Origin: a virus
Taxonomy: Duplodnaviria > Caudoviricetes
IMG/VR virus record: IMGVR_UViG_3300030333_001969
Coordinates: 1,761-65,760 of that record
Reading direction: 5' to 3' (one strand)
DNA length: 64,000 bases
Shown here: positions 3,608 to 58,939 of the stretch, in pieces
How the letters are laid out: the number at the start of each line of letters is the position of its first letter
Position numbering within the stretch: the first letter of the stretch is position 1
Program-made: the position numbers and the translations under genes
The notes under the pieces: generated by a model
The model's database searches: none
Seen by the model: only the letters and a program-made list of their open reading frames with translations
What the model was told of the DNA's origin: nothing

Positions 3608-3963
3608 TAGACGACCTCCATCCTAAAGTTGAAACTAATAGTCTCGTCTGCCCCTATGGGGCCAATGCTATTAAATGTAACGCGGCTTAACATATCACCA
3701 CCAGTCTGTGCATTAAAAATACCTAATTCAGAAATCTTATTACTACCTAATTCTGCACCTGTAAAATCTACTGAGTAAATTAATATATTAGAGACTAAAG
3801 TGGGTGTTGCTGATTTTCTTTGTGCTAATACACTATTATCCAATTCTGTCTGTGAAGCAGAAGAAGAATCTCTACCATCTCCTACGTCTATATATGTGAA
3901 TGCATTTACTGTTTCACCTTTAATCATTTTGCCTAAAGCAACTCTTCCCGCGTCTATTATCAT
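3607..3963 (-). CDS. Small baseplate / fibre-anchoring protein (probable start MIIDAG at 3963)
   Basis: G-R...YIDVGDG...SELGIFNA..GGDMLSR pattern resembles tail-fibre-attachment proteins. ATG overlaps the upstream stop. Lies between tail tip and fibre. Confidence 0.55.
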   Translation of the reverse strand: MIIDAGRVALGKMIKGETVNAFTYIDVGDGRDSSSASQTELDNSVLAQRKSATPTLVSNILIYSVDFTGAELGSNKISELGIFNAQTGGDMLSRVTFNSIGPIGADETISFNFRMEVV

Positions 3964-9900: not shown

Positions 9901-10943
9901 AAAACTATAGTATTGTTTGAATTGTCATGACTCGCAATAACTCCTGCATGAAGATAATTGCTTCCATCTAATATCCAAACACTTTGCCCATAATCAGAAG
10001 TGGCAAAATCATAGTCTCCTGTATAGTCTGTTATAGTTAACGTTTTATTTGCCGTCCAATCAGTATCGGTTCCAGCAGAATTATATGCTTTTGTATTGGT
10101 AGCAAACTTAGTCCAATCTTTAAACCATCTACAAGTAGTTAAAAGATATTTAGTATCGTAATCTAGTTGGTTTTCTATATCTAACCTGTCATTATAGAAA
10201 TACCATGTAGGTAAAGAAACACTACAGAAACCATCATATTTGTCAAGAGTAGTATTAACAGCAGTATCTCCTCTTAAACCATAAGATACGGCTACTATGT
10301 TTGTATTAGTTACTGCTGGCCCTTTGTAAATTTCAAAGTTTGTGCCTTCAGGTATAGTAGTTGGATATTTGGGGCTAAACTCAAACCCGTCACCATACTC
10401 GTCATAACTTATGAGTTTATTTATTTTGGCAAAATGAGGTCTAATTGTTGGGGTAGTGTCATCAGATATTTCTGGATTTATTAAAACGAAATAATCATAA
10501 TTTTCTAAATCTAATCCTGATTCTGGTGCAGACGAACCACCTACCTTTTGTCCGGCAGTTGTTTGTTTAGCATCATAGCATCTAATTTTATGCGATAATG
10601 TATTCTGTTTATTAGTAGCATAATTAGCCAATGTATTAGGATTACTAGAAGGCATTATTCTATTTACTATTCTATCAGTTGCATGATTAGAAATATCGGG
10701 TTCAGTAGTGGCTCCAACATCAGTCGGTGCTTTTCTAATTTCAAAGAAATTAGCAGAACTTCCTTGATATTTTGAACCTAAAGAATCTATCATAGGGTTC
10801 TTTAATGTAGGATTAACTGAAACACTAGTAAACGCTACATGATTTCCTGCTGTCCACCTAGTTGCCCAAAGGTGGTTAAGACTTTCTGAACTGGACACGC
10901 CAGCATTTAATGGATAAACATAGTTAACTGTCATCTTCATCAA
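3960..10943 (-). CDS. Very large tail tip / baseplate hub protein (2327 aa)
   Basis: Size, position, beta-rich composition. C-terminal ATRVVVIG...DPNITS..EAR...PGDRVT...F.V.EI resembles tail hub proteins. Confidence 0.6.
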   Translation of the reverse strand: MMKMTVNYVYPLNAGVSSSESLNHLWATRWTAGNHVAFTSVSVNPTLKNPMIDSLGSKYQGSSANFFEIRKAPTDVGATTEPDISNHATDRIVNRIMPSSNPNTLANYATNKQNTLSHKIRCYDAKQTTAGQKVGGSSAPESGLDLENYDYFVLINPEISDDTTPTIRPHFAKINKLISYDEYGDGFEFSPKYPTTIPEGTNFEIYKGPAVTNTNIVAVSYGLRGDTAVNTTLDKYDGFCSVSLPTWYFYNDRLDIENQLDYDTKYLLTTCRWFKDWTKFATNTKAYNSAGTDTDWTANKTLTITDYTGDYDFATSDYGQSVWILDGSNYLHAGVIASHDNSNNTIVLDNMRTNLTHSQGTAEYIYYGRTITSAVFKTERKYGATIIDLGSKNQHGVLVDNLVTTDILDAPTDKDTNSTYTPNPSEWVNCFRNFSRNASDRTSAHASYSPTTTYKLIHGDLSGPRKYLYFKDSKDRNNGVTNIISPTNVNNPQNRISQFATVTSIDETGVKHLKMKEDADLKISTSLHRGSLSEHELPYTASTDTTSGQNIILQQIEEGFDARNDSFLSTGDIVRLENTYYRISAIASPLTDLKTQQITVDKKKLPTKNTWEAVGTLPNISKKKIFVRAWNGGLTGSIPIDTEGVYSSNNLARLTINGKTISKENTALYNNKLVFLNKQFYGHNVLIDYGDAVNKYIKLQNPNKKFYVPSNNISFLYYMEGNYSIEDTVFQGTVEDISTKNEHGNMIYTVSGRDNISTLLNNSVNKNLNRTSDMVYSSLPPMLDFNDPLDGQYNLVSIQTNGVTITDTSDVLQALNKYDLVFHYAGGSDYRFMGEVSTATDNSGTTVIVFTHNNKTNPTSGNKQLKFVRLGKTSTYLSALKAAGANVQASAHPTELSHLGNNGISFNSGIKNLYNGASNTKTDLIYSSATGSYSEDESLGYDINSIKAIERGKDSSFAFKLAHETEAGVSLKPMQTTSGYSPYNVVSMNTKDEANSVISLAPTFPLVLGSIETNSSDTLLGSAGTTGMAGIYLVNTNLPAGGFLHRLSSELDSNYYFGDTIYRYTGLNKFKKGTVNETHTSVYNNNKNKQNIHGYCSAYKIDESGAIKAITASTAFGGGTNAEMGDLTHSLKPLRESNIWTGSHMGLTGGSSVRKAPTEWITEYDSSNPANCGSYAGNWTELENIDYRTKTYDILGLGDMFIDSKLRHNNIAFAADSHEFTSFGLMLEEDGNKGDSVSHEKYTGDSNIMEQRDIDYDNMTIKSASISPSSMKRFGVMRLVEATFDWHFNPVDYESLPKTNALETISHLKWPRSRVLYHNLTVNYDNFGSINSGWLTLSGNVSLSAGDIIYRGKDGTALAVAHKTITNDSSLTVHNTDTTKDLKMLSYDDETDANGDTIYIVRAKLFNTLAPPEGKWGLDEVGNNGLYMPNMYMSVPMVYRDYLRHRLLVGVNSSTNKLNGHDLWIPLIGECIDGVAGTNYNADDNRGQISGFHQAKDWTGNSSETYYHPSRIVNAITRQTFGSNSDGTQYKTHNNTHLYTSCNVLFKDMKKVTKQKDVNKAFTRPTSAVIDIDAGCINTWSNSLGTYISTSGAWDEIDQHSRVLRINQKPPDGQEMTYLGTKTRSHFLGEDSVRSDSSNYDSRSWKHTENDWGLKKKGDVFQAQALFKPKIDFDSDTLNATSFSITLDENCINSWIDYVPNLKGYYLVSDKLVGTNLTLPDKDAFDGTTTTNRLKGEPVYIGKIIHHGVTDSSTYAVHTIKLDTTLNTANHGKTFRLMRISETTFKDTPDYFDLNKMFDTGLKYDYLTQNYITGDEELTDSVVGFGSSADTYTTSAATNDDLIYEEGLFAMYLLLDVDSIIDGKPDRRTVAHVRATPPFNSNTFTGGEFYITDGDTGEVKDLSIESSTTNVRITYDGELNGKGIVSFGEVFNITTHVKPKMRKAQRAYIGTTFNVGTDAEKAMEDILEENNINVDTSEKGLVYTTNIVSQNTTGTTITLENNAINVSAGDDIYNQDGKFIGEVASTSTNTITLAELDSGGADVAYKPVANDEITVYNRKPLIVNSRFTEQDVYGAINFLANKKGLEYQFVQNSPGEMRIKDAYDYDSKRKFDISYKSGTVLEIEKNENMFDKATRVVVIGDSVKAEAEIPVTKGKTKTVKVIDPNITSVSEARIKAEKTLTAHKQKAKKIQIKMDRTGYEMMKPGDRVTLTFETHDIKNEEFTVFEIDNVMSNVTTVTVGTFNKTIAERLSELGVEQKTGFGTLFTKNAGETIKIHYEMEDVLLKETSLKYQVSTPGGTLSGWNTTIGHISTIGSGTDTVTTTEIKL

Positions 10944-14436: not shown

Positions 14437-15852
14437 TTAAAACCTCGTTGGTGTTGTGTTTGTTCTATTCATTCTCATGTTAATCTCTCTTGCTACCTTT
14501 GTTGCCATGTCTTTTACTTCTGCATCTGATGCGCCTATACGACCTTGAACATTTACTGTAATGTTTGTTGTACCCATCATGTTTGCAGATTGGTTGCTAG
14601 TATGAACCCTAGACCCTCTTGGTAATGAAACTAATTCTGGGCCTTTTTCTCCTACTAAAGTCATATTTTCATTTACTACTCCTCCTGTGGCTCTACCCGG
14701 AATTACCTTTGCTATAGCCCCTGCAACTGCGGCTGCAAGAAGATAACCTAAGGCTATCATCCATCCACCTGTAGCAATGAAGGTTATCGCTGCTACTACT
14801 AATAATATTGCAGAAACCATAGTAAAAAGGAATTTACCTATTCTTGCAAGCCTACTTTGTCCTTCTTCTAACTTACCAAATAATACACTCCATGCTATGT
14901 TTAAAACAAGCATAAGGGCAGAAGCCATTATACCAAATGCCCCAATTACTAATTGAATCATGCCCCAACCTAATTGTTTTAATCCCTCAAAGAACTTACC
15001 AAAATCTCCTTGTAATGCTCCTACTACCATTTTAAATACTCCTCCCAATACATTAACTATTCCTGACCAAATCATCGTTAATGCTCTAACAAATACCTTT
15101 CTTGATTCTTGAATCCAAGGCCACATCATTTTAATAATATTTACAAGGACTAAAATTCCAAGTAAGAAAACAGTTCCCCACATTAGGGCATTTTTCAAAA
15201 ACGTTCTTAACCCTTTTAAGACTGGGTTAATGGCCTTAGCAAAATTAACTAATCGTTGACGTTGTTTAATGAAGAATTTTTGAACCGGATTATCTGCTTC
15301 ATCTAATTCTCGCTTGTCTAATTTCTTTTGCACAATTCTTTCTTGTGCCACATCTAACTTTGCTTTTTGACCACTCATCATGTCTTTGGTATTTTTCATT
15401 ACTTCTTCTTGAATAGCAATTTGTTTTGCTTGCTCATCATTAAACTCCATTAGACCCTTTGTATCTAATGCATCAATATATGCTTCTGCTTGTTGAACAA
15501 TAGCATCGTATTCTTTAACTGATTCGCTTGCTATGCCTTGCCATTCTTCCCATGCAAGGTTATTATCTAATAAGTCTTCATTTAAGTTTTCTAATGCGTC
15601 ACTTAATTTAACTTGAGCATTAATGGCATCCATTACGGCTTTATTTCCGGCTTCATGCCCATCATAATATAATCTAAAAGCATCAGTAATAGCCCTAAAT
15701 TTATTTTGAACTGCCCAGAAATTAGGTAAAATACCCGATGCTGAACGACTAACTATTGTCCAAAATCTTGATTTGTTTAAACCAACCATTACATCTTGTA
15801 AACCAGTTGTATTGGCGGAAAGGGCTTCAATAGAAGCGGATATTGAATACAT
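14437..15852 (-). CDS. Tail tape measure protein (short, about 471 aa)
   Basis: Helical N-terminus, hydrophobic middle with periodic aromatics, C-terminal RATGG...VGEKGPE motif; follows the chaperone gene. Confidence 0.75.
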   Translation of the reverse strand: MYSISASIEALSANTTGLQDVMVGLNKSRFWTIVSRSASGILPNFWAVQNKFRAITDAFRLYYDGHEAGNKAVMDAINAQVKLSDALENLNEDLLDNNLAWEEWQGIASESVKEYDAIVQQAEAYIDALDTKGLMEFNDEQAKQIAIQEEVMKNTKDMMSGQKAKLDVAQERIVQKKLDKRELDEADNPVQKFFIKQRQRLVNFAKAINPVLKGLRTFLKNALMWGTVFLLGILVLVNIIKMMWPWIQESRKVFVRALTMIWSGIVNVLGGVFKMVVGALQGDFGKFFEGLKQLGWGMIQLVIGAFGIMASALMLVLNIAWSVLFGKLEEGQSRLARIGKFLFTMVSAILLVVAAITFIATGGWMIALGYLLAAAVAGAIAKVIPGRATGGVVNENMTLVGEKGPELVSLPRGSRVHTSNQSANMMGTTNITVNVQGRIGASDAEVKDMATKVAREINMRMNRTNTTPTRF

Positions 15853-18850: not shown

Positions 18851-19062
18851 TCTTTTTCCTCCTTACTTAAAGCATATTCAAATTTTCTAAAGAAGTTATC
18901 TGCTGCATTATCTAATACCATGTCGTCATCTGCTGCTAAGTCTTCTAATCCCTGCAAAGCAAGTATTTCTTTTTCTATTTCTGCTCTCTCTTTTTCAAGT
19001 TTCAATATCTTTTGAAACTCAAATATAAGATTTTTCATTTCACCCATGTTATCACTAATCAA
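18826..19062 (-). CDS. Hypothetical neck-region protein
   Basis: 78-aa ORF overlapping both neighbours in the operon. Confidence 0.5.
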   Translation of the reverse strand: MISDNMGEMKNLIFEFQKILKLEKERAEIEKEILALQGLEDLAADDDMVLDNAADNFFRKFEYALSKEEKEWMKSLSS

Positions 19063-20191
19063 TTAAATGAAGCAATTGTTTCTTGCCGTCTATTATCTGT
19101 TTGGCCTCTTCAACAAGTATGTCGTGTTTAGTTTTCAAATCAATATTTGCACCAGATTCAGCAATTAATACAGTATTATCATCATGTAATAGCACTTCTG
19201 CTGCTACCATCTTTGTTGCTGCTTCGTGAATTGCCGCCGGAACCCTGCTTCCACCAATTTGATAAGTGACTTTTATTGCATTGTTTTGAATATAGGGCCA
19301 ATTATTTCTAAAATAAATTCTTCCTTCTTCCTTAATATCCCACCAATCTTCTCTTCTTCCATAAGATTCTTTGTCTTCAAAAGAAATAGTGCTTATTTTT
19401 GCTAAAGTAGAACCTTGCCATTCCTCAATTGTGCATATTGTTCCTGCATCAGAAGGAAGTAGTGAAGAAATTTTAACCTTAGTTCCGTCATGGCTTGGAG
19501 AAGCATAAAAGAAATCTGAGATATTTTTGTCAGTATGGTTTCCTCCACCATCACCTGTGTCGTTTTCTCCTGTAATTGTCTTAGCCTGTGTTTCTCCTGT
19601 AAACCCTGAAGTCTTTGATGGGTATTTTTCATTAATTGCATCACATAATTGTAACACCGTTGTCTTTTCACCTAGATGATTATAGAATCCATTTGCAGAA
19701 CCTCTTGGAACATTAAACCTAATTGTGTTTGCTTCGCCCGGAGTCCCTACATAAAAGACGTATTTATGATTTTCAGTTGTAGTTGTTGGAGTTATTGTTG
19801 CCATAGCAGAAGCAATGTCTTCATATTGATTACCTTTCCAAACCTCTAGCCTAACCAATTTTCTTATATTAGTATATATTAATTGAATAAAACCAACATA
19901 ATCTTTCCAATGTGATACAGGATACATAACATCTCTTGTTGGAATAAAATCATGATGTTCTTTTTGTATTATTTCTGGTCTAAATGTAGTTTTAATACTA
20001 TCATCTATCTTGCCTTCAACTCTCTTAATTATCTTTCCTACTTCTGCATTTGTTGGACTTGTTGACCCACTAAATGTTTGACATTGTAATAATGCTGTAA
20101 CATCTGCATGGGTAGTATAATATCCAAACCCTGTTCCATAGTTTACTGCTTGTCCTTGAACAAAATCACTATCTGACTTTAACTTACTCAT
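19055..20191 (-). CDS. Head-tail adaptor / connector protein
   Basis: N-terminal YTT.ADV..LL and C-terminal IKVTY..G...VPAAIHEAA..MVA are typical of head-tail adaptors, with a central insertion. Confidence 0.65.
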   Translation of the reverse strand: MSKLKSDSDFVQGQAVNYGTGFGYYTTHADVTALLQCQTFSGSTSPTNAEVGKIIKRVEGKIDDSIKTTFRPEIIQKEHHDFIPTRDVMYPVSHWKDYVGFIQLIYTNIRKLVRLEVWKGNQYEDIASAMATITPTTTTENHKYVFYVGTPGEANTIRFNVPRGSANGFYNHLGEKTTVLQLCDAINEKYPSKTSGFTGETQAKTITGENDTGDGGGNHTDKNISDFFYASPSHDGTKVKISSLLPSDAGTICTIEEWQGSTLAKISTISFEDKESYGRREDWWDIKEEGRIYFRNNWPYIQNNAIKVTYQIGGSRVPAAIHEAATKMVAAEVLLHDDNTVLIAESGANIDLKTKHDILVEEAKQIIDGKKQLLHLID

Positions 20192-22316: not shown

Positions 22317-23018
22317 TTAAGCCAACCAAGCGGCCCAAGCAGCACCCTTAGAAATCATCTGCGATAGACCCAAACCACTACTAGGGGGAGTATAGGTCAT
22401 TTGACCCGTATTCGGGTCTATCCAGTAAGGGTTCCCCATTGTATCCGTTCCTGCTGGTGGAATCGGATACCCAGAATTGTTGCTAAATGCTTGTTGTTGC
22501 TGATACATGGCCTGATTAAATTGAGTTGCACCACTACCACCTTGTATTTGTGATGGGTCAACACCGCCAGCAACAGGCATTCCTGCTGATGGAGCCATTG
22601 TTGGGGCTTGTGGTTGTGGTGCAGAAAAGCCCTGTGATTCTAAATACTGACTCTTTGCCATCTTTCTTTGATAAACTACTTCTGAATTAACCGCAGAAGC
22701 CAATAGGTTTTGTAAATCAAGTTGAATGTTAGCATCTGTTATTGTATTTAGTTCAGCCTTAACAGTTTCAGTAACTCCTATTTCTGTTCCTGTTCCTACT
22801 GTATCGAATCTTAGTTTTGTTAATTGTTGACTAACAACTCTCTCAACAACATCTTCAACTAACTTTTCAAGTGCGCCCAAAAATTCTACTCCGTGGTATT
22901 GGAAAAACTCTTCTACATGATTGTCCTGTAGTGTTAGTAGATTATTAGTGGCTTTAAATTGCGCTTGTGTATTAGCGTCAATTTGCCTTGCAATGCTTTT
23001 ATTTGATGTGCCCCACAT
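22317..23018 (-). CDS. Helical plus Q/P/G-rich protein with hydrophobic C-terminus
   Basis: Helical N-half, low-complexity C-half, YWIDPNTGQ motif, ends GAAWAAWLA. Confidence 0.7.
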   Translation of the reverse strand: MWGTSNKSIARQIDANTQAQFKATNNLLTLQDNHVEEFFQYHGVEFLGALEKLVEDVVERVVSQQLTKLRFDTVGTGTEIGVTETVKAELNTITDANIQLDLQNLLASAVNSEVVYQRKMAKSQYLESQGFSAPQPQAPTMAPSAGMPVAGGVDPSQIQGGSGATQFNQAMYQQQQAFSNNSGYPIPPAGTDTMGNPYWIDPNTGQMTYTPPSSGLGLSQMISKGAAWAAWLA

Positions 23019-23019
23019 A

Positions 23020-23715
23020 TTATTGTGCCTCCGTTTGTGTTGGTTCAGGATTTATTGTTTGTTCTTCCTGTGGAATTATTTTTGCCCCGTTAGTCATTAA
23101 CTCAATAACTCTTTTATTAATGCCGTTTTGCTCCATTGTTAAACGGAAAAGTTCGTCTTCTGCATTTTCATCAGTCATGCGTGGAGGTCTTATTGTCCAA
23201 CCTGCTCCTGACAAACTCTCAATATCGGATTGCCTTAATGAAGTTAGCGGTGCTGATTGTAACATTTTAGGCACTTTGGGCATAGGTATGTATGATTCAA
23301 AAGAAAGGCCGTGTTCATCTGCTATTATCTGTTGCTCTAACATCTCATATTGTCTGTGTAATTGTGAATGCTTCTCACAATAAGTGCCTCTCATTGGATA
23401 ACCTTTTCTAACTTTGTGAAGAGGTATTGTTGGTCGCATTGGGTCAGAAGCATCCCAAACCTTATGTGTTCCGCATACAACACATCTGTCCTTAGCATTG
23501 AATTTATAGCCATAAGGTATCTTCATAAATGTTTTTCTTTCAGGCCAAAGAACCTTTAGCATTTCTTTAAGTTGTTTCTTTGGCTTGCTGCTTTTATAAT
23601 CATATTGCATTACGCCCCCTGCTGCCCTAGCAAACTTAATGGGCGGTAAGAAAGGATTTGCTGCCGTAGCAGTAGTAGCATCTATTAGTGAAGGAGGGTT
23701 ATATGTCATTGCCAT
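23020..23715 (-). CDS. Zn-finger-containing hypothetical protein
   Basis: CVVC...CEKH ligands; GGTGA RBS upstream. Confidence 0.65.
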   Translation of the reverse strand: MAMTYNPPSLIDATTATAANPFLPPIKFARAAGGVMQYDYKSSKPKKQLKEMLKVLWPERKTFMKIPYGYKFNAKDRCVVCGTHKVWDASDPMRPTIPLHKVRKGYPMRGTYCEKHSQLHRQYEMLEQQIIADEHGLSFESYIPMPKVPKMLQSAPLTSLRQSDIESLSGAGWTIRPPRMTDENAEDELFRLTMEQNGINKRVIELMTNGAKIIPQEEQTINPEPTQTEAQ

Positions 23716-23723
23716 TGTATCAC

Positions 23724-23939
23724 CTAATTACTCATAATATATCCTTCTGCTACCTTGTATAGTTCTCTAAACATATTAGGCTTACCTTTATTTTTTCTAA
23801 TGAAATCCATTACAATTGAATCTAAAGTTGCTACTTCTCCTTGTCCTTCATAGCCCTGTGCTGCATCCCACAAATGTTTATTCCTTCTTTTAAACTCCGC
23901 GTATATTTGCGCTTCATTTTTTAAAATTATATCCCACAT
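23724..23939 (-). CDS. Small protein with WxxIILK-type N-terminal tag
   Basis: Starts MWDIILKNE; coupled to the GTPase stop. Confidence 0.6.
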   Translation of the reverse strand: MWDIILKNEAQIYAEFKRRNKHLWDAAQGYEGQGEVATLDSIVMDFIRKNKGKPNMFRELYKVAEGYIMSN

Positions 23940-24607
23940 TAGTAATCCTCAATCATTGTTGCTACGCCACGATAAACCATTTCTGAATCTGATTTTGCAC
24001 TTACTATATATTTGTATGTTGGTATTCCTTTGTCATTTAATTTGTTTGCTCCATCTTTAAATGCGTCAAATATATGATGTTGTTGAATGTCTTTGAATTG
24101 ATATTTATCTTTCCATAAGTCGAATTTATTTGCCCATATTCCTACTGCTTTTGGATAATCTTTATCAGACTTTTTATATTTTCTATTTTCCATATCCCAA
24201 TAAGGAGCGCATATTGTATCTACTAAAAATGTCCAGCACAATTGTTGCTCTATATCAAAATGTTTTGTTAAATGTCTATCGTCAATCATAAAGATAATAT
24301 ATTCTACTTTTCTTGTTCTCATATCGTATAGCCATTCATTCCAATATGTTGTTTCTCCTCCTATGTCTGATGTTTTGATTGTATGTTGGTCACCATCAAT
24401 TTTAATTGTTTTTCTTAATGCTCTTTCTCTTCCAACTGTTCGTTGTTTGATTTCTGGTACATCTCCTCTTGTTCTTAATTGATGATGTAATGTTGTTTTT
24501 CCAACTTGTGTTGCACCATATACTCCAACTGCGTGAGGATTTATTTTCTTCCAAAGTAGTCCTAATTGTTCTATGCAGATGATTACAAACCCAGTCATTA
24601 CTGACAT
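23939..24607 (-). CDS. Arf/Sar1-like small GTPase (Ras superfamily)
   Basis: G1 GATQVGKT, G2 RTVG, G3 DIGG, G4 NKFD and G5 SAK in correct order; hydrophobic/amphipathic N-terminal extension. Confidence 0.85.
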   Translation of the reverse strand: MSVMTGFVIICIEQLGLLWKKINPHAVGVYGATQVGKTTLHHQLRTRGDVPEIKQRTVGRERALRKTIKIDGDQHTIKTSDIGGETTYWNEWLYDMRTRKVEYIIFMIDDRHLTKHFDIEQQLCWTFLVDTICAPYWDMENRKYKKSDKDYPKAVGIWANKFDLWKDKYQFKDIQQHHIFDAFKDGANKLNDKGIPTYKYIVSAKSDSEMVYRGVATMIEDY

Positions 24608-24615
24608 TCAATCAC

Positions 24616-24834
24616 CTAGAAATGAAATATCGAAGAAATACCTCCCCAAACCGTGCTAAAGAGATTAACCCCCAATGATGGTAAAGCATGGCCTATACAA
24701 AAACTACAGACAGAAGCAATGAAACCCCAAAAATAAAACCTTGCTCTTAGAAACCAAACATCTGCTGAATGCGCTCTTTGCATATCGTATGCTAAAGCAG
24801 ATTCATCCATGCCAAATGCAATGGCCTCTAACAT
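24616..24834 (-). CDS. Small membrane protein
   Basis: 72 aa with hydrophobic FYFWGFIASVCSFCIG segment and hydrophobic C-terminus. Confidence 0.65.
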   Translation of the reverse strand: MLEAIAFGMDESALAYDMQRAHSADVWFLRARFYFWGFIASVCSFCIGHALPSLGVNLFSTVWGGISSIFHF

Positions 24835-24838
24835 TTAA

Positions 24839-25240
24839 TCACTCAACCTGCGCTAAGAAAGAAGGAGAAACCACCTGTGGTTCTTCTGCCTTTGGTGCTA
24901 GGTTATTTGTTGGTGTTCTGTTCCAAGAGTTATTAAACTGTTGAAGACTTTGACGAACCTTTTCTCTTTGTTGTTCATCTCTAGCCCTTCTATTCCAATA
25001 GGCGGCAATTCTTCTATCTAATAGGGTCATCTCTATATAATCGTTTAAGGCAAGGTCAAAGACCGCCTTCATTACAAGTATTCCACCAATAGTCATTAGT
25101 GAAAATACTACTGCGTGTGCATAGTGTGAAAAGGCAAGCAAATTGCCATACTCAGCATAAAAGAAAACATTTATGCCACTAATGCAACCAACGAATAATA
25201 TCGTCATTACTAGTTTTGTATCTTTTTCTAACGCGGGCAT
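24839..25240 (-). CDS. Two-TM membrane protein with charged helical tail
   Basis: Two hydrophobic stretches (LVMTILFVGCISGINVFFY; AVVFSLMTIGGILVM) followed by a charged helix. Confidence 0.65.
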   Translation of the reverse strand: MPALEKDTKLVMTILFVGCISGINVFFYAEYGNLLAFSHYAHAVVFSLMTIGGILVMKAVFDLALNDYIEMTLLDRRIAAYWNRRARDEQQREKVRQSLQQFNNSWNRTPTNNLAPKAEEPQVVSPSFLAQVE

Positions 25241-25244: not shown

Positions 25245-25556
25245 TCATCTCGCTTGAGCAGAAACGATTAATTGATTAGCGGTTCTACCTGTTGTAGCGT
25301 CTGCCTTTAAGTAAAGACCTATACCCAACATAGCCCCATGATAGTCCAAATCCAGCGTAGTATTTGCAGCAACAACTATAGTTGCAAACAAATTTGCAGC
25401 AGTATCGTTTGTATCATCATATAAATGAACAGTCTGTGCTGAGTCATCTGAATTATGCACTTTAATAGACATAAGTTTAACCCTATGTGCTATCAATTGC
25501 TTTTCTTCTGCATTAGCATTAGCGTTCTTGAATACATATTGTAGTGAACCTGCCAT
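25245..25556 (-). CDS. Small beta-rich putative virion protein (probable start MAGSLQY)
   Basis: GGAG RBS before ATG at 25556; located near the capsid genes. Confidence 0.5.
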   Translation of the reverse strand: MAGSLQYVFKNANANAEEKQLIAHRVKLMSIKVHNSDDSAQTVHLYDDTNDTAANLFATIVVAANTTLDLDYHGAMLGIGLYLKADATTGRTANQLIVSAQAR

Positions 25557-25632
25557 AATCGCATCTCCTGTGAATCGTGTGAGGGGTCGCACCCCTTATG
25601 AATGTTGTCTAAAAAATTTGGTGTGTAGTGAC

Positions 25633-25676: not shown

Positions 25677-26021
25677 TCAAAGATTTCCCCAGACTCGGAT
25701 TCTTACCGAACCGTAATCAACGGAGCCACCTTCTGCGTTAGCACCAGATGTTCCTTTAATACAGTTTAACTTGAAAGAAGTTGCTCCAGCGTATTCGCCG
25801 GAAGCATCTACTTCAGGTACGGTAAAACCGATTAACGAGTCTTGACCTGTCATTGCAACACAATGGACGGTTCTCAGTCCTAATTGCGCTGCGGTGACAG
25901 TCAATCCCCCGTCTGCATAAGTATCCATATCAACTAAAGCGTCAACAACATACTCGTCACCAACGGCTTTAGGGGCAGTTATGCCCTTATGGTCAGCCAG
26001 CATTGTTACTACTAATGCCAT
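25677..26021 (-). CDS. Putative head decoration / minor capsid protein
   Basis: 114 aa right after the MCP; Y..GGL....AQLGL motif; same GC-richer codon usage and GGTGA RBS as the MCP. Confidence 0.55.
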   Translation of the reverse strand: MALVVTMLADHKGITAPKAVGDEYVVDALVDMDTYADGGLTVTAAQLGLRTVHCVAMTGQDSLIGFTVPEVDASGEYAGATSFKLNCIKGTSGANAEGGSVDYGSVRIRVWGNL

Positions 26022-26032
26022 ACTTAATCACC

Positions 26033-27451
26033 TCATGCACTACTTAGGTTGGTTATCTTACCTTGTCCCTTAAAGAAGGAACAACCAGTCTCAGCAATCG
26101 TGCGGTACATTGCCTGATTGCCAAGTTTTGCAACACCGAATGGGTTGCCGTGGTCAATACCATCTTCAAAGTATTGGGTGGGCTTCATTACTGATAGCCA
26201 TATATGGTCTGTGTCCAGAATCAGTATATCGCTTAAATCAGTAGCAGCAGCCGTCTTTGTGGTAGAAGGCATATCCTTGCAAGGTATGATGGGTATGTCG
26301 AAGTAAGTAGCGACTCTAAAGCCGACTTCTGACCCCTTTACACCTCTAACACCATTATGGGTAGGGATAATCTCCTTTCTGTCCATAAATCGCTCTTGGG
26401 ACTGTAGTAAGTCACCAAGATGCTGAATGGTGTCATATCCTGTTAGGATGACCTTAGGGCTTCCACCTGCTTCTCTAATGTTTCTTAACGCCTTGTTAAG
26501 AATGGTTAGAGTTAGTGGTCTTGTAGAAGCATATGAATCACCAAAGTCCACATACGAATCAAGATACCCTGCATCAACTGCTTGTGCTAATTTAACACCA
26601 GAAGAACCTGCACCATCAACCGTTGGTCTTCTAGCGGTTGTTCCGAACAAATCAGCCATCTCGTTAGGGAATACGTCTGAACCAGTCTTTGCTTGGTTTA
26701 GGAAACCAAAGTCCTCGTTATACATATCCGTTAACTCAGCAGATGAAGAAACTATCTTCATTAAAGAAGTATAGTTCTGGTCTGCTCTAGCAGCCGAGTT
26801 TTCTAGGTTGTAGTCTTCTAAAGGCATTAGAAGCATAGCGTTCTGCATTTCAGCGTGGTGCTTACCCATATCTTCACGGATTAGAGCGCGAATGTCTCCA
26901 ACACCGTCATCAATCTTTGCCATCTCAAGGGCCAATTCCGAGAACTCAAACAGATGAGCAACCGTCTTTGGGCTGGTCTTAAGTTGTGCATAGGTTGGTG
27001 TAATAGCAGAAATGGTTCCTGCCGTTGAATCGGCTCCAGAATCAATTGCTGCGTTCTCACCATAAGCACCTAAAGCGTCTGGACGTAGTGTATCTGCACC
27101 CTTTGCCAGCGTTGCGCTGTCACCGGACATAGAAACTTTACTGTTTCCACCGCCACCTGCTCTCTTTTCTAGCACTCTCCACCCAGAAGCCGTATATGGC
27201 CTCTTAGCGAGCATTGCAAGAGCATTGCATTCTTGGTTTATCATTGACCATACTTTCTTACCGTATGCAATGTTATATAGGGAAGATACTGCCGTTGGGC
27301 CAGTTCCAGTCAAAAGTCCGGCTGAACCATCGTGTGAAGAACCTAGTCCTCCAACAACACCTGCTGCCTTAAGCAGCGAATTTCCCTGACCGCCCTTAAT
27401 ACCATAAGTTGCGGCTTCCAAATCTTTCATTGACTTAATATATCCACTCAT
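26033..27451 (-). CDS. Major capsid protein (HK97 fold)
   Basis: 472 aa downstream of the protease. P.VILTGYDT...L, VATYFDIPIIP and DILILDTD motifs resemble archaeal tailed-virus MCPs; strong RBS. Confidence 0.85.
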   Translation of the reverse strand: MSGYIKSMKDLEAATYGIKGGQGNSLLKAAGVVGGLGSSHDGSAGLLTGTGPTAVSSLYNIAYGKKVWSMINQECNALAMLAKRPYTASGWRVLEKRAGGGGNSKVSMSGDSATLAKGADTLRPDALGAYGENAAIDSGADSTAGTISAITPTYAQLKTSPKTVAHLFEFSELALEMAKIDDGVGDIRALIREDMGKHHAEMQNAMLLMPLEDYNLENSAARADQNYTSLMKIVSSSAELTDMYNEDFGFLNQAKTGSDVFPNEMADLFGTTARRPTVDGAGSSGVKLAQAVDAGYLDSYVDFGDSYASTRPLTLTILNKALRNIREAGGSPKVILTGYDTIQHLGDLLQSQERFMDRKEIIPTHNGVRGVKGSEVGFRVATYFDIPIIPCKDMPSTTKTAAATDLSDILILDTDHIWLSVMKPTQYFEDGIDHGNPFGVAKLGNQAMYRTIAETGCSFFKGQGKITNLSSA

Positions 27452-27462
27452 ATTTAATCACC

Positions 27463-28704
27463 TTAGTTTTCATACTCCGCGATGAAGTTGTGAATCTCTC
27501 CCCAAGACATTTCAGATACATCTGGTACTTCAATGGTTTGGGTCTGAGCCTTAACAATATCATCAGACTGAGCAGTTAAAGACTTCCTAAGAAGAGTAAA
27601 CTCTTCCTTTAGTGCTTCAACTTCGTTCTTTGCGTCATACTCGTTTCGGGCAACAGAAGCCTTTCTTACGTTTTGCTCCTCTACGAACCTTTCCTCAAAC
27701 CTAGCCTTTAGAGAGTCATAAGCCATCTTCTCTAACTGCTCTGCTTTGAAAGCCTCGTAAGCCTTCTCTACATTCTCGGTGCTAAGGTCTAGTGTTGAGA
27801 AGTCGTCATTTGACCACTCCTTGTATAACTGTCCCATTTGTGCGCCTTGTGGGTGTTTCTTTGCCGTTGAATCATGGTCAGGTAATCTGCCATCTTCAAC
27901 GAAACCTTCCGGCCCCGTTTTGCCTTTGGTTGTATTATCGAAGTCAGACTCTTCTAGGTCATCGGAATCGGACTCTTCTAAGTCCATACTTTCCTTTGCG
28001 CCATCATACTCATCTCCTTCGCTTCCTTCGGAGTATTCCATGTCTTCAACGTCACCTTCTTCTGCCATAGGCACATCAACGTCATCTTCCATGCTACTCT
28101 CATCCTTTTTGAGGTTGTTAACTTCTGCCATAAGGCCGTTAAGTTCCTCAAGTGCTTTTTCCAATCTCTCAGTCATGTCACTCTTCTCCTCCTTTAATAT
28201 GTCAAACTTTGCTTCTGGGTTTATTCCTTTCTCACAAATTGTTACTTCATGGAGTTCTAATTTATCTATCTCATTATACTGGCCTAACTCTTCACTAGTT
28301 TTTTGCCTCTTTGATAATGCTTGTCCACCTATGCTGAATGAACGTAAGGTTCCTTTTCTGATACCTCTTTGAATTTCTTTTGCTTTTTCTATGTCATCTC
28401 TTAGTTTAATAACAACATAAAATCCTACATCGTCTACTTGTGTTTTATGAAGATTTCCAGATTTATCTCTATACTTCTCTATTACATCTCCGACTTGAAC
28501 GTTTGAATGATTTGACATTACATTTCTATATTTGGGTGTTGTCATATATTTATTTACTGCTTCTTCTAATGCTTTCAAAGTAATTAAATCATTTTGTTTA
28601 TCTACTATTTCTATTGAAGCGTATCCACCAATAACTAAATCATCTGATTTTAATATCCTAAAGTTTCCTTCTGTATCCGACTTCAGCAGTTGGGCTTCCG
28701 ACAC
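27463..28704 (-). CDS. Prohead protease (HK97-type) fused to acidic/coiled-coil scaffold
   Basis: IGGYAS.EIVDKQND, H in MSNHSN, LRSFSIGG and ELHEVTIC.KGINPEAKF; acidic linker and coiled-coil C-terminus. Confidence 0.85.
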   Translation of the reverse strand: MSEAQLLKSDTEGNFRILKSDDLVIGGYASIEIVDKQNDLITLKALEEAVNKYMTTPKYRNVMSNHSNVQVGDVIEKYRDKSGNLHKTQVDDVGFYVVIKLRDDIEKAKEIQRGIRKGTLRSFSIGGQALSKRQKTSEELGQYNEIDKLELHEVTICEKGINPEAKFDILKEEKSDMTERLEKALEELNGLMAEVNNLKKDESSMEDDVDVPMAEEGDVEDMEYSEGSEGDEYDGAKESMDLEESDSDDLEESDFDNTTKGKTGPEGFVEDGRLPDHDSTAKKHPQGAQMGQLYKEWSNDDFSTLDLSTENVEKAYEAFKAEQLEKMAYDSLKARFEERFVEEQNVRKASVARNEYDAKNEVEALKEEFTLLRKSLTAQSDDIVKAQTQTIEVPDVSEMSWGEIHNFIAEYEN

Positions 28705-28743: not shown

Positions 28744-31266
28744 TTACGCAACTTGCATGGTTAACTTTTTATGCCTGTCTTCAGTAATATCCCATATTCC
28801 TTCATCTTTGTCTTTATCTAACATCTTTTGTTTGATTCCTGTCCAAACAACCCATGTATCTTGTTCTTTAACAGGAACCACTCTAAAGTGTAATCTAGTT
28901 TCAAACTTATCCCCATTTATTTTATATTCGTGATAACCATGCCTTTGAACACCTAACTCAATTTCTCCAGAATCTAACAATTTATCTCTTGTTGTCTTTG
29001 TAGAAACTTGTGCAGGAAACTTACCAGACTTGCCAAACAGATTATAAATATCTTCAGCATCTTCAATATCAATTGTCCACGCCATTTCTTTATCGGGCGT
29101 TCTAATAATCATTTCTAAGTTATCATCACTACCATGATATAATAAGAACTTACCCTTCTTTGGAGTCTTTTCTGCTTTAATAAGTTTATCTTTATTTGCA
29201 GTATATTTATCTTTAGTTACCTTGATAAAATCATCATAATCATTCATCCAGTTAACCATTCTTTTGATGTCTCCTGTCCATAAATCTTCAACTAACTTAG
29301 GTATCTTCTCTTTACAGAAATTAAATATTTCATTTATATGTATTCCTTTTTCTTCTGTATCTATTTCTTGTAAGTATGCTTTAATTGCTACTCTAGCATC
29401 CCCAGACTTTGCCTTCATTAACTCTTCAATTTCATGCTTCCACATATCCATGTCGGCTAAAGCATTCTTTTCCATTAGAGAGTCTCCACTAAAACCATAA
29501 ACAGTAAAGCCTTCAAAGTCAGATTTCATTATAATATCTGCTTCACCGTGAACACCATCAGTTATTACAAACTTTGTTAATGCGTCTTCAACTTCATACT
29601 TTAATGATTTCCTGCCTTCTTTAGATAATAGGTCTAATGTAATTAGTTTCTCTGGTGCTTCTACTTCTGGTATTTCAATCACTTTAGCAGTATACAGTTT
29701 ATACCCACCATTGTTCTTTCTAACTTCATCAACCTTAACCCTTACAATATCTCCAACATCTACCTTTTCTTTAGTATTCAATGCTTTACCAACTGCTAGA
29801 TATTTAAGGCCATCTAATTCTGTTCCACCATGTTCTCTTGCTTCTTCTCCGCTAAGTGGCCCTGCTCCTAAAGTATAAGAATTAAGGTTAGACTTCGTAG
29901 ATTTCTTATCTAATACAATTAAATCTAAATCTACAAATTTCTTTAATTTAATCCACTTGGGGTTTTTCTTACTTCCTTTGTAGTAAGTAGATTCTATGTC
30001 TTTAATAACAACTCCTTCTGATGTTGGTAATTCCATAATATCTTTAGAATACTTTTCTATTTCTGCTAATGAATCTGCTATCCTAGTATTCTTTTTATTT
30101 GGGAAAGACAATTCATCAGAAGAATGCTGTGCTAACTGATAAAATAGAATATTTATTCTTTCTCTTAATGGGGTATCAGTTACATTCTTTCCTTCGTGAT
30201 GTAATATATCAAATACCCTAGCCTTTAACTTTGCTTCTGGATATTTTCCTTTGAATAGATGTGCAATAGTATCTGCACGATGTAATGGTTCGTCTTTATC
30301 ATATAATATTATTTCAGCATCAAAGATGCTATCACCAAACCTCTTTTGTTCTAGTTTATCAACAATGTCTTTACATTTGGAAGTAATATCTTTTTCATTA
30401 TATGAATAAATTTTAACCTTGTCTTTTATTTTATGTAGTTGAACTCTAATGCCATCATATTTTTCTTGAACTACCCATTCTCCACTAAATCCTTTTAAGT
30501 CTTTAATATCATTTACTTCAAATATTCTATACATGGGTTTGTTTGGAATTACAAAATCTGTTTCTTCTTTTTCTTTTTCAGACTTTTCTTTTTTCTTTTC
30601 TTTCTTTAATCTGATTGCTACTAACTCTTCCCAATCTTCTTCTGTATTGTCCACTAAGAAAACTTTCTTTAATAATTCCAATGCTGGCTTAAACTTAGGT
30701 TTAACCTTAGAAGTATCCTTATCATCTCCATAGTGTTCTATAATGTAAATAGGTATATCATCTAACCTAAGGTCTAACCCCATAGCCCCTTCAGAAATGT
30801 TGCCTATGTTTATACCATGTTTTTCCCAAGCAGCAGCAGATATACTGTGTGCGTGTGTGCGTAAAGCATAGTGTATGAACATAGCATATATAGAGGGTTC
30901 AGACACAAACGTTTCTATAACGTTGTCACCCAATTGTTTAGCAAAGGGGTCATTAACTTCTTCAGAATTATAACGCAATCTTTTAATCTGAGCATACAAT
31001 TCTCTTGCTTGACTAGATTCTGCATCAAGGGCATTCTTATCGAAAACAGTTTCTTCATCTAAATATCTTTTCATTTCATTAGTAAAACTACTAAGACCAT
31101 CAAAATCATCTCTTATCTTCTTAACAGACTTTCTCCATTCTTTACCGTATTCATCAGGGTCTTCTCTCGCAGATAGATATTTGTATCTTACATCTTCATA
31201 AAAGTCAAGGACACGCTTCGCCAGCCCTGTATTCTTTTTGCGAAAGAAGACCCCAGATTGTGGCAA
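28744..31266 (-). CDS. lig: ATP-dependent DNA ligase with N- and C-terminal extensions
   Basis: Motif I EKYDGIR, III FDAEI, IIIa VFDILH, IV EGVVIKD, V KWIKLK, followed by an OB-fold region. Confidence 0.9.
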   Translation of the reverse strand: MPQSGVFFRKKNTGLAKRVLDFYEDVRYKYLSAREDPDEYGKEWRKSVKKIRDDFDGLSSFTNEMKRYLDEETVFDKNALDAESSQARELYAQIKRLRYNSEEVNDPFAKQLGDNVIETFVSEPSIYAMFIHYALRTHAHSISAAAWEKHGINIGNISEGAMGLDLRLDDIPIYIIEHYGDDKDTSKVKPKFKPALELLKKVFLVDNTEEDWEELVAIRLKKEKKKEKSEKEKEETDFVIPNKPMYRIFEVNDIKDLKGFSGEWVVQEKYDGIRVQLHKIKDKVKIYSYNEKDITSKCKDIVDKLEQKRFGDSIFDAEIILYDKDEPLHRADTIAHLFKGKYPEAKLKARVFDILHHEGKNVTDTPLRERINILFYQLAQHSSDELSFPNKKNTRIADSLAEIEKYSKDIMELPTSEGVVIKDIESTYYKGSKKNPKWIKLKKFVDLDLIVLDKKSTKSNLNSYTLGAGPLSGEEAREHGGTELDGLKYLAVGKALNTKEKVDVGDIVRVKVDEVRKNNGGYKLYTAKVIEIPEVEAPEKLITLDLLSKEGRKSLKYEVEDALTKFVITDGVHGEADIIMKSDFEGFTVYGFSGDSLMEKNALADMDMWKHEIEELMKAKSGDARVAIKAYLQEIDTEEKGIHINEIFNFCKEKIPKLVEDLWTGDIKRMVNWMNDYDDFIKVTKDKYTANKDKLIKAEKTPKKGKFLLYHGSDDNLEMIIRTPDKEMAWTIDIEDAEDIYNLFGKSGKFPAQVSTKTTRDKLLDSGEIELGVQRHGYHEYKINGDKFETRLHFRVVPVKEQDTWVVWTGIKQKMLDKDKDEGIWDITEDRHKKLTMQVA

Positions 31267-48891: not shown

Positions 48892-49206
48892 TTACTCTTC
48901 CTCCTTAATGTCTCTTAATATAGTAGATGTATTTAATAGAAATTTACTATCCTTTGGCCCGATTAATGTGCTAGACATAATAAAAGCAAGACTTCTAAGA
49001 ACAGTATCTATATGATATTTCATTTTATCTGTTAATTTAGAATCAGTAGGTAATTTCTCTCTAGGAACCCTTGCCCATTCTTTACCGTCTTTCCTTTTAT
49101 TCTTCTCTCTTTGTTCCTTTTCATATTCTGGTGTTCCCCACCTATGCTCATCAGGATGATAAAAGTATGGTGTTTCATCTTCTTTAAGTATATCTTGCCA
49201 ACTCAT
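48892..49206 (-). CDS. Hypothetical protein (probable start MSWQDILK)
   Basis: ATGA overlap at 49203-49206. Confidence 0.6.
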   Translation of the reverse strand: MSWQDILKEDETPYFYHPDEHRWGTPEYEKEQREKNKRKDGKEWARVPREKLPTDSKLTDKMKYHIDTVLRSLAFIMSSTLIGPKDSKFLLNTSTILRDIKEEE

Positions 49207-49859
49207 TGCATTCTTTCCTCCATCTTTTGTTTTACATCTAACCAAACTTGTGGATGATTCTGTGCTAATACTTCTTGAACAATCTGCATTTGTGCTACTA
49301 TGATTGTATCCTGCCTCTTGTGAACTAACTTGCCCTTAAACTCCATTAAGTATCTTAGGCTTTCCCTAATTTCTTTTGCCAACTTGGTTAAACTATCAAT
49401 ATATTTTGGATGCAATTCGTCCTCTTCAAAGAGAACATCAATCTTTTGCTCCAAACGGGTTATGTTCTTCGATAGACTGTCTATCTCGTCTACCTCTTTC
49501 ACGGCTATAATACTTGCCGCAGCCTTCTGAACTAATGGCTGAAGATGTTTCCTCATGTGTCTCTTTACTTGTTCTTCTGAACATTTCAAAAGCATAGATA
49601 CCCCTTTAGGAGTAACAGCCCCACTATGCAGTTGTTGTTCTAACTCACCCCTTAACTCATGTATACAGAAAGCACATCTAGGATTAGAAGCATCTACATA
49701 ATCCCCCATATGATTTCTTTGATGCCTTGCAGATGTTCCGCTAGGCCAATCCATTCTATTATCTAAATCATCGGCAGTAATTGCCATTGTCTCTAATTGT
49801 GCTTCTAAGTCATCACGGTCTTCGTGATTACACAATTTACATCTTCTTCTCTTTACCAT
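49203..49859 (-). CDS. Duplicated Zn/HTH protein with coiled coil; candidate terminase small subunit or regulator
   Basis: Two CxxC.H...RH...H modules (CKLCNH..RHQRNHM; CAFCIH..RHMRKHL) followed by helices. Confidence 0.5.
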   Translation of the reverse strand: MVKRRRCKLCNHEDRDDLEAQLETMAITADDLDNRMDWPSGTSARHQRNHMGDYVDASNPRCAFCIHELRGELEQQLHSGAVTPKGVSMLLKCSEEQVKRHMRKHLQPLVQKAAASIIAVKEVDEIDSLSKNITRLEQKIDVLFEEDELHPKYIDSLTKLAKEIRESLRYLMEFKGKLVHKRQDTIIVAQMQIVQEVLAQNHPQVWLDVKQKMEERMQ

Positions 49860-56537: not shown

Positions 56538-56611
56538 TCTTCCGCCTCAATTAATGTCTTCATAAAGTTAATAAAAAACCTACACTCGCCATTTGGGTGT
56601 CTTTCTGCCAT
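56534..56611 (-). CDS. 25-aa leader mini-ORF of the late operon
   Basis: AAGGAGG RBS; MAERHPNGECRFFINFMKTLIEAEE; TGA overlaps the next ATG. Confidence 0.4.
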   Translation of the reverse strand: MAERHPNGECRFFINFMKTLIEAEE

Positions 56612-58825: not shown

Positions 58826-58851
58826 GTGAATCATTCTTATCTTATTCTTAG

Positions 58852-58893: not shown

Positions 58894-58939
58894 TTGCTTT
58901 GCGTTAAACCGGAGAGGTGGAGAGGGGCGCAAAACCCAC

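Follow-up and report, generated by a model that had tools for sequence, protein, structure and literature searches.

Giant eukaryotic viruses encode small GTPases of the Ras, Rab and Ran type, which are recent captures of eukaryotic host genes and act on eukaryotic trafficking. For Arf GTPases, the excerpted text of bioRxiv 10.1101/2024.02.28.582541 gives as the defining feature a register shift of the interswitch that couples the nucleotide state to the release of the N-terminal helix. In Haloferax, a GTPase with an N-terminal membrane helix (ArvA), a SepF-like protein (ArvB) and a Zn-ribbon protein (ArvC) control vesicle formation, as stated in an excerpt of PMC10927574. In Atabeyarchaeia, Arf GTPases that cluster with Asgard and eukaryotic Arfs are encoded in an integrated mobile-like region (PMC11529989, in excerpt). 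The egress players of head-tailed archaeal viruses are described as uncharacterised in the excerpted part of PMC10791045, where holins are small proteins that have one or more membrane helices and end in a charged, hydrophilic C-terminus. Here we analysed a stretch of 64,000 nucleotides (the window) of the IMG/VR virus record IMGVR_UViG_3300030333_001969, in which a cassette of five genes encodes two small membrane proteins (TM133 and TM72), a small GTPase, a Cys/His-motif protein (Zn231) and a Q/P-rich protein (QP233; Table 1). Our reading, to which we assign a probability of roughly 0.4 as a whole, is that these genes form a membrane-GTPase cassette that is specific to viruses and belongs to magrovirus-like tailed viruses of archaea. 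A membrane-tethered GTPase switch module is the probable core of it, judged from the predicted proteins; egress or lysis as its purpose is a reasoned guess that we consider rather doubtful.

A preliminary description of the locus had proposed a small GTPase with intact G1 to G5 motifs and the Arf-like sequences RTVG and DIGGE. The protein starts with a hydrophobic helix (residues 1-22), followed by the G1 motif GATQVGKT, the switch-I RTVG, the G3 motif DIGGE and W92 at +11. A polybasic loop, NRKYKKSDKDY, comes before beta-5, then the G4 NKFD and the G5 SAK. In a 36-row alignment with homologues that are 59-93% identical to the window protein, G31-x4-G36-K37-T38, T57 of the RT[VI]G, G83-G84, N160-K161-x-D163 and S203-A204 were invariant in all 36 homologues, and D81 of G3 and K205 of G5 were kept in at least 90%. 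The alignment was extended to 49 rows by two distant lineages. Lineage 1 is that of the window (57 loci, GTPase 61-96% identical), lineage 2 has 80 loci and lineage 3 has four, and the GTPases of the latter two are about 30-36% identical to that of the window. Across the three lineages G31, G36, K37, D81, G84, N160 and K161 were invariant in 49/49. As predicted proteins, the GTPases thus carry the sequence hallmarks of the Ras superfamily (G1, switch-I Thr, G3, G4 and G5), in line with the preliminary description. An AlphaFold2 model of moderate quality (mean predicted local distance difference test score (pLDDT) 67, predicted template-modelling score 0.67) placed a helix at residues 2-22 and has the six-stranded alpha/beta fold of a G domain. 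In Foldseek it resembled Ras, Arf and Rab chains about equally, with E-values of 2e-5 to 1e-4 and template-modelling scores of 0.4-0.5.

The residue after the DxGG varies between the lineages. In the GTPases on viral contigs, it is E in 39/39 of lineage 1, where the 36-row alignment also shows Q; in lineage 2 (n=56) it is Q in 36, E in 8 and D in 6, with no DxGG match in the other 6; and it is H in 2/2 of lineage 3. This variation suggests that hydrolysis may depend on a partner.

The family affinity was analysed with a profile of the three lineages against the sequences in the PDB. The nearest solved relative was the full-length GerdArfR1 (8oun, E 5.5e-7), followed by Rab33B (2.9e-5), Arl8A (2e-4) and H-Ras (1e-3). 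We infer the identity of 8oun as GerdArfR1 from the excerpt of bioRxiv 10.1101/2024.02.28.582541. The alignment to 8oun spans the N-terminal helix, the switch-I T[VI]G and the DxGG with a tryptophan 11 residues on; together with the small-GTPase fold and the position of the helix before the G domain, these are the features that the viral protein has in common with Arf and GerdArfR1. Among the fold rows compared, the best template-modelling score (0.50) was that to 8oum, also the Asgard GerdArfR1, and the identity to solved Arf and Ras proteins was about 16-21%. When the viral family was compared by hhalign with metagenomic proteins that have Arf as their best Pfam match, the probability was 99.9% (E 1e-33) over 187-207 columns, which is the full length. 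Distant relatives found by the profile pass the cut-off of Pfam Arf (PF00025) with 26.8-57.2 bits, and a distant relative carries the label 'signal recognition particle receptor subunit beta' (SRbeta) in one source. A hydrophobic N-terminal anchor is a likeness to SRbeta as well. The nearest characterised relatives therefore appear to be Arf-family proteins, by a modest margin, and the earlier claim of an Arf-like GTPase is borne out to this extent.

Several results weigh against an Arf assignment. The best Pfam match of the window GTPase was MMR_HSR1 with 19.8 bits at a cut-off of 21.9, and the curated Arf model PF00025 gave no match to it at E<=1. Among the 49 members, MMR_HSR1 matched 28, Roc 23, SRPRB 23, Ras 16 and Arf 10 (counted for Arf at E<=0.01). 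The G5 SAK, which we take to be Ras/Rab-like, and an interswitch about five residues longer than we assume for Arf1 also differ from Arf. Further differences are the E, Q, H or D at the position of the catalytic Gln, the family-specific polybasic insert before beta-5 and, in comparison with the Asgard ArfR proteins, the encoding by a virus of a non-Asgard archaeon. In NCBIfam the window GTPase matched the generic small_GTP domain alone, below its cut-off, and PHROGs had no family for it. We conclude that the predicted GTPase represents a highly divergent branch of the Arf-type GTPases, its membership being unproven. At the level of the predicted protein, the comparisons establish the core of the cassette as an Arf/SRbeta-like small GTPase that is divergent in sequence and has a full set of nucleotide-binding motifs.

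Membrane segments were called with the Kyte-Doolittle (KD) scale in windows of 19 residues. Hydrophobic segments were found in 4/69 minus-strand ORFs (open reading frames) of the window, and three of these, the GTPase, TM72 and TM133, are adjacent, which argues that the membrane cluster is not due to chance. The two small transmembrane proteins of the preliminary description were hence recovered. In the GTPase the hydrophobic segment comprises residues 1-19 (KD >= 1.6). The preliminary description had called this helix hydrophobic or amphipathic; the mean hydrophobicity is 0.41 and the hydrophobic moment 0.29, and 33% of shuffled sequences reach that moment. The helix is therefore predicted to be hydrophobic and is not demonstrably amphipathic, a point that counts against our reading; in lineages 2 and 3 the moments were 0.37-0.56. 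The polybasic loop is common to all three lineages, with 6-9.5 K+R versus 1-3 D+E in 24 residues.

The Pfam scores could also mean that the protein is a cytoplasmic GTPase acting in translation, at the ribosome or on nucleic acids and that the membrane-protein genes are mere neighbours, as MMR_HSR1, the best-scoring model and one that 28 members match, represents a 50S ribosome-binding GTPase. We consider this very improbable. No Pfam score of the window protein reaches its threshold, the conserved N-terminus is hydrophobic enough to exceed a hydropathy threshold of the transmembrane type, and the G3 reads DxGG followed by W and not DTPG as in the Era/Obg-type and ArvA-type GTPases. In addition, the neighbours are fixed in 118/118 loci and relocate with the GTPase, as described below.

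The distribution of the GTPase family was investigated in several collections. A word-indexed search returned 342 relatives, of which the best 120 are 59-98% identical, and some relatives are named 'GTPase SAR1 family protein' in one source, an automatic label. The profile search of 1.84 billion representative proteins gave 85 matches at E<=0.001, none of them a fused form and none longer than 280 residues. Among 185,579 prokaryote species, with one genome each, four loci were found, three in one bacterial metagenome-assembled genome (MAG) and one in an archaeal MAG. The bacterial MAG is labelled Maricaulis sp.; its three cassette contigs (L144, L145 and L146), of which two are of the lineage-1 and one of the lineage-2 type, are almost certainly viral and were placed in the bacterial genome by binning. 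In 301 genomes of the phylum of the archaeal MAG, a strong match was found in that MAG only. A tblastn search of the GTPases of the three lineages against 50,697 GenBank phage records gave no match, and neither did the single-protein query P0129 in the locus scan. Because the counts are 85 in 1.84 billion proteins, four in 185,579 species and one in 301 genomes, the family appears to be practically restricted to viruses and nearly absent from cells.

The preliminary description had regarded small GTPases as unusual in prokaryotic tailed viruses. In accordance with this, the named matches among the 50 best structural matches in BFVD were all from eukaryotic viruses, nearly all of them giant, with no phage or archaeal virus. 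The GTPase has the fold of the virus-encoded Ras, Rab and Ran proteins of giant viruses; unlike these, it is encoded by an archaeal tailed virus, has no close cellular source and stands in a fixed five-gene cassette. With the Atabeyarchaeia it shares the occurrence of Arf-type small GTPases on an archaeal mobile element, whereas the region there belongs to an Asgard chromosome, with no tailed virus and no fixed membrane-protein cassette reported in the excerpt of PMC11529989.

Next to the GTPase, the order of the genes is conserved. The order two-helix membrane protein, one-helix membrane protein, GTPase, Zn partner and Q-rich protein is kept in three divergent virus lineages. Loci were counted when they had enough flank (at least 2 kb downstream for the Zn partner and the Q-rich protein), and 8 lineage-1 and 7 lineage-2 loci with a GTPase ORF cut by the contig end were left out. 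In lineage 1 the order TM133-TM72-GTPase-Zn231-QP233 was found wherever the flank exists. Lineages 2 and 3 encode a two-helix protein with a long charged helix, a small one-helix protein, the GTPase, a partner of 256-357 residues and a Q/G/M-rich protein, to which lineage 2 adds a further small two-helix protein. The Zn partner and then the Q-rich protein followed the GTPase in 41/41, 73/73 and 4/4 loci of lineages 1, 2 and 3, respectively, and a gene like that of TM133 (TM-A) was present in 46/46, 67/67 and 4/4 (117/117). An ORF like that of TM72 (TM-B) was located directly upstream of the GTPase in 46/46, 65/67 and 1/4 by the hydropathy threshold (112/117); the other three lineage-3 loci have a 79-residue ORF at this position with a maximum KD of 0.93.

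Homology between the lineages was tested by hhalign, with comparisons across positions as controls (0.1-26%). The probabilities for lineage 1 versus 2, 1 versus 3 and 2 versus 3 were 100%, 99.7% and 100% for the GTPase, 97.2%, 96.2% and 100% for the Zn partner, and 91.6%, 91.2% and 27.5% for the helical domain of the Q-rich protein. By these profiles, the Zn partner and the Q-rich helical domain are homologous between the lineages. For TM-A the values were 2.2%, 5.9% and 97.2%, and for TM-B 1.1%, 30% and 75%.

The location of the cassette in the genome differs between the lineages. In three lineage-2 records (91-100% complete), the cassette and the capsid gene share a strand and are about 20-23 kb apart, with the cassette upstream and directly before a homologue of the window ORF at 49203-49877. 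In the window this ORF is itself upstream of the capsid gene, at a distance of about 22 kb, and the cassette comes just after the capsid gene. Since the ORF is directly downstream of the cassette in lineage 2, it marks the alternative position of the cassette. The different positions indicate that the five genes were relocated together and that the cassette behaves as one unit. The preliminary description had allowed that a cluster not conserved as a unit would speak against it; the unit was kept in three lineages and moves together. The joint relocation argues for one self-contained function and weakens readings that depend on a place between head and neck genes, a position that had been put forward for the cluster and that holds in one of the three lineages only. 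The marker ORF itself has two CxxC/H motifs near the N-terminus and is 27-37% identical between lineages; Pfam gave a sub-threshold match only, and the homologue in L072 showed a weak signal of a GerE-type helix-turn-helix.

In the lineage of the window, the cassette has the capsid gene on one side and the neck and tail genes on the other, hardly separated from them by intergenic DNA, and in every lineage its strand is that of all structural genes. Such a place within the structural gene string is just as compatible with a role in the virion or in assembly and counts against our reading. The cassette proteins would then be morphogenetic factors or internal or ejected virion proteins, for instance for a membrane-active DNA delivery, with the GTPase as an assembly chaperone or switch. 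Among 13 genes compared, the GTPase had the highest identity in most lineage-1 loci, as expected for a core gene. In the most distant lineage-1 subgroup it was 61% identical and the capsid protein 57-58%, and in L007 the values were 79% and 62%. A language-model look-up with residues 1-140 of QP233 led to clusters of portal and connector fragments at 0.87-0.89, which is below the trusted level and a lead only. In lineage 3, the gene for a thermosome, a folding helper (group II chaperonin, Cpn60_TCP1, E 1e-133 to 1e-140), is located just upstream of the cassette (L140 4250-5782, L143 3820-5478). However, the lineage-2 cassette is set apart from the head genes by its distance to the capsid gene, and no PHROG structural family matched any cassette protein. 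In addition, the haloarchaeal virus HVTV-1 shares the capsid and protease module and has no homologue of any cassette gene, and the conserved virion architecture therefore does not need the cassette. To our knowledge, Ras/Arf-type nucleotide switches are not components of tailed-virus virions. Taken together, we regard a virion role as improbable.

In part of lineage 2, a small ORF of 48-67 residues (MSRHVSVVMPDDLFAK...) precedes the gene of the two-helix protein directly (L060 4393-4542, L062 6136-6282, L064 6114-6317). By eye, it looks like a ribbon-helix-helix regulator.

The virus was classified from its structural genes. The window is part of a 65.8-kb virus record that was judged 68% complete, and the replication module is outside what was seen of this record. 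A provirus in a cellular genome was rejected because of this source. The gene string reads terminase, portal, an 840-residue protein with a ligase domain, prohead protease, HK97-type capsid, cassette, tail tube and tail ORFs. The capsid protein matched 9 of the 50,697 phage records (22.5-24.8% identity), all of which belong to haloarchaeal tailed viruses and a single Methanofastidiosa virus. The capsid module is of the HK97 type and nearest to Druskaviridae, and the structural module includes an ATP-dependent DNA ligase, an arrangement regarded in the excerpted text of PMC5434244 as a hallmark of the magroviruses of groups A and B. Relatives are found in marine metagenomes, on contigs of up to about 104 kb. 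Because of the capsid matches, the ligase inside the structural module and the marine relatives, we treat the window as a partial magrovirus-like tailed virus of marine archaea. No tRNA or other RNA feature was found in the window.

The intergenic gaps from p115 (25245-25592) through the 378-residue ORF p378b (19055-20191) are only -28 to +8 nt, which makes a single transcript of the cassette with the neighbouring structural genes plausible. Marine metatranscriptome contigs from four runs of two studies cover the genes of p114, the capsid and the protease (25692-28655) with few or no differences, so near-identical viruses were present in those RNA libraries. Within the cassette, one marine RNA-library contig of 168 nt (23039-23202) matched inside the Zn231 gene with zero differences; this is weak evidence since DNA carry-over is possible.

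The partner proteins were then analysed one by one. In TM133 the two helices are followed by a charged, conserved helix, DLxLNDxIE..LLDRRIxAYW..RDEQQRE, and a conserved C-terminal PSFLAxxE. Zn231 has the CxxC...CxxH motif of the preliminary description in the form C78-x2-C81 ... C113-x2-H116, which is a probable Zn site. C78 and C113 are invariant, and H116 is kept in at least 90% across the three lineages. No Pfam or PHROG family was found for Zn231; of its 508 metagenomic relatives the best 120 have no Pfam domain and are named 'hypothetical protein' or by gene coordinates only. The fold model of Zn231 (pLDDT 62) had no PDB match with E<2, and the protein language-model look-up gave nothing above 0.81. 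The PHROG matches of TM133 and Zn231 were weak and to families of unknown function (E 0.008-0.1), and PHROGs had no family for TM72, p71 and QP233. When a complex of the GTPase and the Zn partner was predicted from a 49-row and a 36-row alignment, respectively, the ipSAE values were 0.00 and 0.10 at a mark of 0.32, which is uninformative either way.

Zn231 had been likened to the ArfGAPs, whose zinc finger we take to be CxxC-x16-CxxC with a catalytic Arg. The spacing in Zn231 is CxxC-x31-CxxH, no Arg is invariant in 36 sequences, and neither Pfam (E<=1) nor the fold comparison gave a match. The candidate was rejected and the analogy given up.

In QP233, the C-terminal block SGYPxPPxGxD..NPYWIDPxTGQxTYxPP is conserved, as is the hydrophobic tail KGAAWAAWLA of about 11 residues. 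The Q/P-rich helical protein described before does end in a hydrophobic stretch, a short one that stays below the threshold for a membrane span. The cluster coordinates in the preliminary description were exact, with all genes on the minus strand. Besides the shortness of this tail and the character of the GTPase helix, it had missed p71. This small protein gave a tblastn match in 1/57 related loci (L004), the remaining loci having a shorter gap at this place, and no Pfam or PHROG family matched. From this pattern we regard p71 as an accessory insert outside the conserved unit.

Since the viral GTPase is linked to a Cys-rich Zn protein and has a predicted N-terminal membrane helix, it was compared with ArvA, ArvB and ArvC, which also correspond in design to a small GTPase with such a helix, a Zn protein and another protein. 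In the 301 genomes sampled, the viral profile weakly matched ArvA-type GTPases of 79 others, through the N-terminal helix and a common P-loop context, [IV]G[IV]YGxxxxGKTTL. From 25 loci that were taken, 22 GTPases were recovered, and 17 ORFs of OapB size and 17 of OapC size passed the length filter. As a positive control, Pfam found OapB (PF09846) and OapC (PF09845) in 3/3 cellular operons scanned. The presumed host phylum hence possesses a GTPase system of the vesiculation type that differs from the viral one. An amphipathic helix and IGIYGPPNVGKTTL stand at the start of the GTPase in these OapA/OapB/OapC operons (L149-L173), and the G3 of this GTPase reads DTPG.

An identity of the viral GTPase with ArvA was rejected, as hhalign gave 95.7% (E 9e-9) over 70 columns, compared with 1e-33 over the full length for the Arf-like proteins, and the viral G3 is DxGG. 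The Zn partner was rejected as ArvC (hhalign 2.3%). No ArvB-like neighbour was detected, since QP233, TM72 and TM133 reached less than 1% against ArvB by hhalign, and no neighbour of the viral GTPase matched OapB or OapC in Pfam at E<=1. The viral cassette, unlike ArvABC, includes two integral membrane proteins and a Q-rich protein besides. On these profiles, the resemblance to ArvABC is one of design and not of descent.

The operon logic in common with ArvABC (PMC10927574, in excerpt) and the weak detection of ArvA-type GTPases raise the question whether the cassette remodels membranes for a purpose other than egress. It could form vesicles, build a membrane-bound replication or assembly site, or change the surface so that superinfecting viruses are excluded. 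The helix at the N-terminus and the polybasic loop suggest membrane binding and would suit such a role. We consider it improbable as well. The partners are unrelated to OapB/ArvB and OapC/ArvC (hhalign <=2.3%), the GTPase is far closer to the Arf-like proteins than to ArvA, and the cassette is invariant in order and highly conserved in sequence, unlike exclusion and host-takeover genes, which are usually variable.

For the membrane-GTPase cassette that we prefer, we suggest the following mechanism. The N-terminal helix, together with the conserved polybasic loop, would tether the GTPase to the cytoplasmic membrane of the host, and the protein would alternate between a GTP and a GDP state. In one nucleotide state, the Zn and Q-rich partners might be recruited to, or released onto, the two small membrane proteins. 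The purpose could be a late event at the host membrane, its disruption or remodelling for virion release. In the most specific form, the cassette would be the egress machinery that has long been sought for a major group of head-tailed archaeal viruses: an Arf-like GTPase, encoded by the virus and anchored in the membrane, would be the timer that licenses two membrane proteins to breach or remodel the membrane of the host, and the Zn and Q-rich proteins would be regulators or effectors; this form we judge unlikely.

Egress is favoured as the purpose because lysis genes are not recognisable, the host type has no murein and the cassette is embedded in the structural gene string. The absence of a recognisable holin/endolysin pair, already pointed out in the preliminary description, was confirmed when 50 window ORFs were scanned against Pfam and no holin or endolysin family was recognised. 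The anatomy of TM133 also speaks for egress. Being small, with predicted membrane helices and a charged C-terminus rich in R, E, Q and D, it would qualify as a holin under loose criteria, and in this the cassette resembles the holin cassettes of tailed phages, where a small membrane protein with a charged C-terminus is encoded in a late gene string. The position of the lineage-2 cassette ahead of the structural block resembles what we take to be that of the lambdoid lysis cassettes. No cassette protein matched a holin family in Pfam or PHROGs, and we know of no phage lysis cassette that contains a GTPase. An endolysin, as found in phage lysis cassettes, was not detected here and is not expected for a host without murein (PMC10791045, in excerpt).

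Other observations have to be set against this reading. Related haloarchaeal tailed viruses lyse their hosts without the cassette, and since viruses of the HVTV-1 type have none, it is not a general lysis system of tailed archaeal viruses. For TM-A and TM-B, homology between lineages 1 and 2 was not detectable by hhalign. C81 of Zn231 is restricted to the lineage of the window, and one lineage-3 Zn partner is without the His. The leads of QP233 to portal and connector fragments, though below the trusted level, also count here, and the host is uncultured.

Arf-type membrane switches are usually discussed as a step towards eukaryotic trafficking. The viral GTPase family has almost no cellular counterpart. 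In full-text searches of the literature, a magrovirus GTPase was not described; supplementary gene tables, which these searches did not cover, may list one. The main texts of PMC5434244, PMC10160649, PMC11706807, PMC8651126, PMC5332604, PMC13465236 and PMC10768690 do not mention a GTPase, and in the archaeal-virus literature on Ras-superfamily genes a review mentions host ArvA only. The literature that links Poseidoniales with GTPases and viruses does not, judged by titles and abstracts, deal with virus genes. In the literature searched, we found no description of the conserved cassette, of its restriction to viruses or of its movement as a unit.

If this form of the egress reading is true, no small-GTPase membrane machine would have been found in a virus of prokaryotes before, and the cassette would be a functional counterpart of the phage holin clock, gated by a GTPase. 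The cassette would, moreover, be an example of membrane-directed Arf-type switches that viruses of non-Asgard archaea acquired and altered. It is a concrete candidate for the action of such a virus on the host membrane, possibly for the exit from the cell. As a small, defined and strongly conserved set of five proteins, it allows this action to be tested, with natural variants at the catalytic position and clear point mutants possible in the P-loop and the N-terminal helix.

Table 1. Coordinates in the window of the cassette genes and of other features discussed in the text.
Feature	Position	Strand	Length (aa)	Remarks
TM133 (TM-A)	24839-25240	-	133	predicted membrane helices 8-29 and 41-65 (hydropathy; 38-sequence alignment)
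TM72 (TM-B)	24616-24834	-	72	conserved soluble N-terminal segment LAYDMQRAHSADVWFLRARF; one predicted membrane helix 38-56
Small GTPase	23939-24607	-	222	from ORF scan
p71	23724-23939	-	71	between GTPase and Zn231
Zn231	23020-23715	-	231	conserved core 45-135; C78xxC81 ... C113xxH116
QP233	22317-23018	-	233	N-terminal helical domain ~25-135; Q/P-rich low-complexity linker
Ligase-domain ORF	28744-31266	-	840	ATP-dependent DNA ligase domain (residues 255-442); between portal and prohead protease genes
Marker ORF	49203-49877	-	224	
Tail-module membrane ORF	14437-15852	-	471	hydrophobic segments 217-248, 294-328 and 335-386
Very large tail-end ORF	3960-10943	-	2327	
Very large tail-end ORF	2-3607	-	1202	runs off window end
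Plus-strand ORF	61641-62150	+		
Plus-strand ORF	62860-63540	+		

Outside the cassette, the fourth ORF with hydrophobic segments is part of the tail module and had no family match. Its product could be a membrane-active tail or DNA-delivery protein. The two very large ORFs at the tail end gave no Pfam match at E<=0.001.

At the other end of the window, from 56000 to 64000, no family matches were obtained. In this region the G+C content climbs from about 0.34 to 0.41, the GC skew flips its sign and plus-strand ORFs appear, marking a switch of module or of transcription direction.

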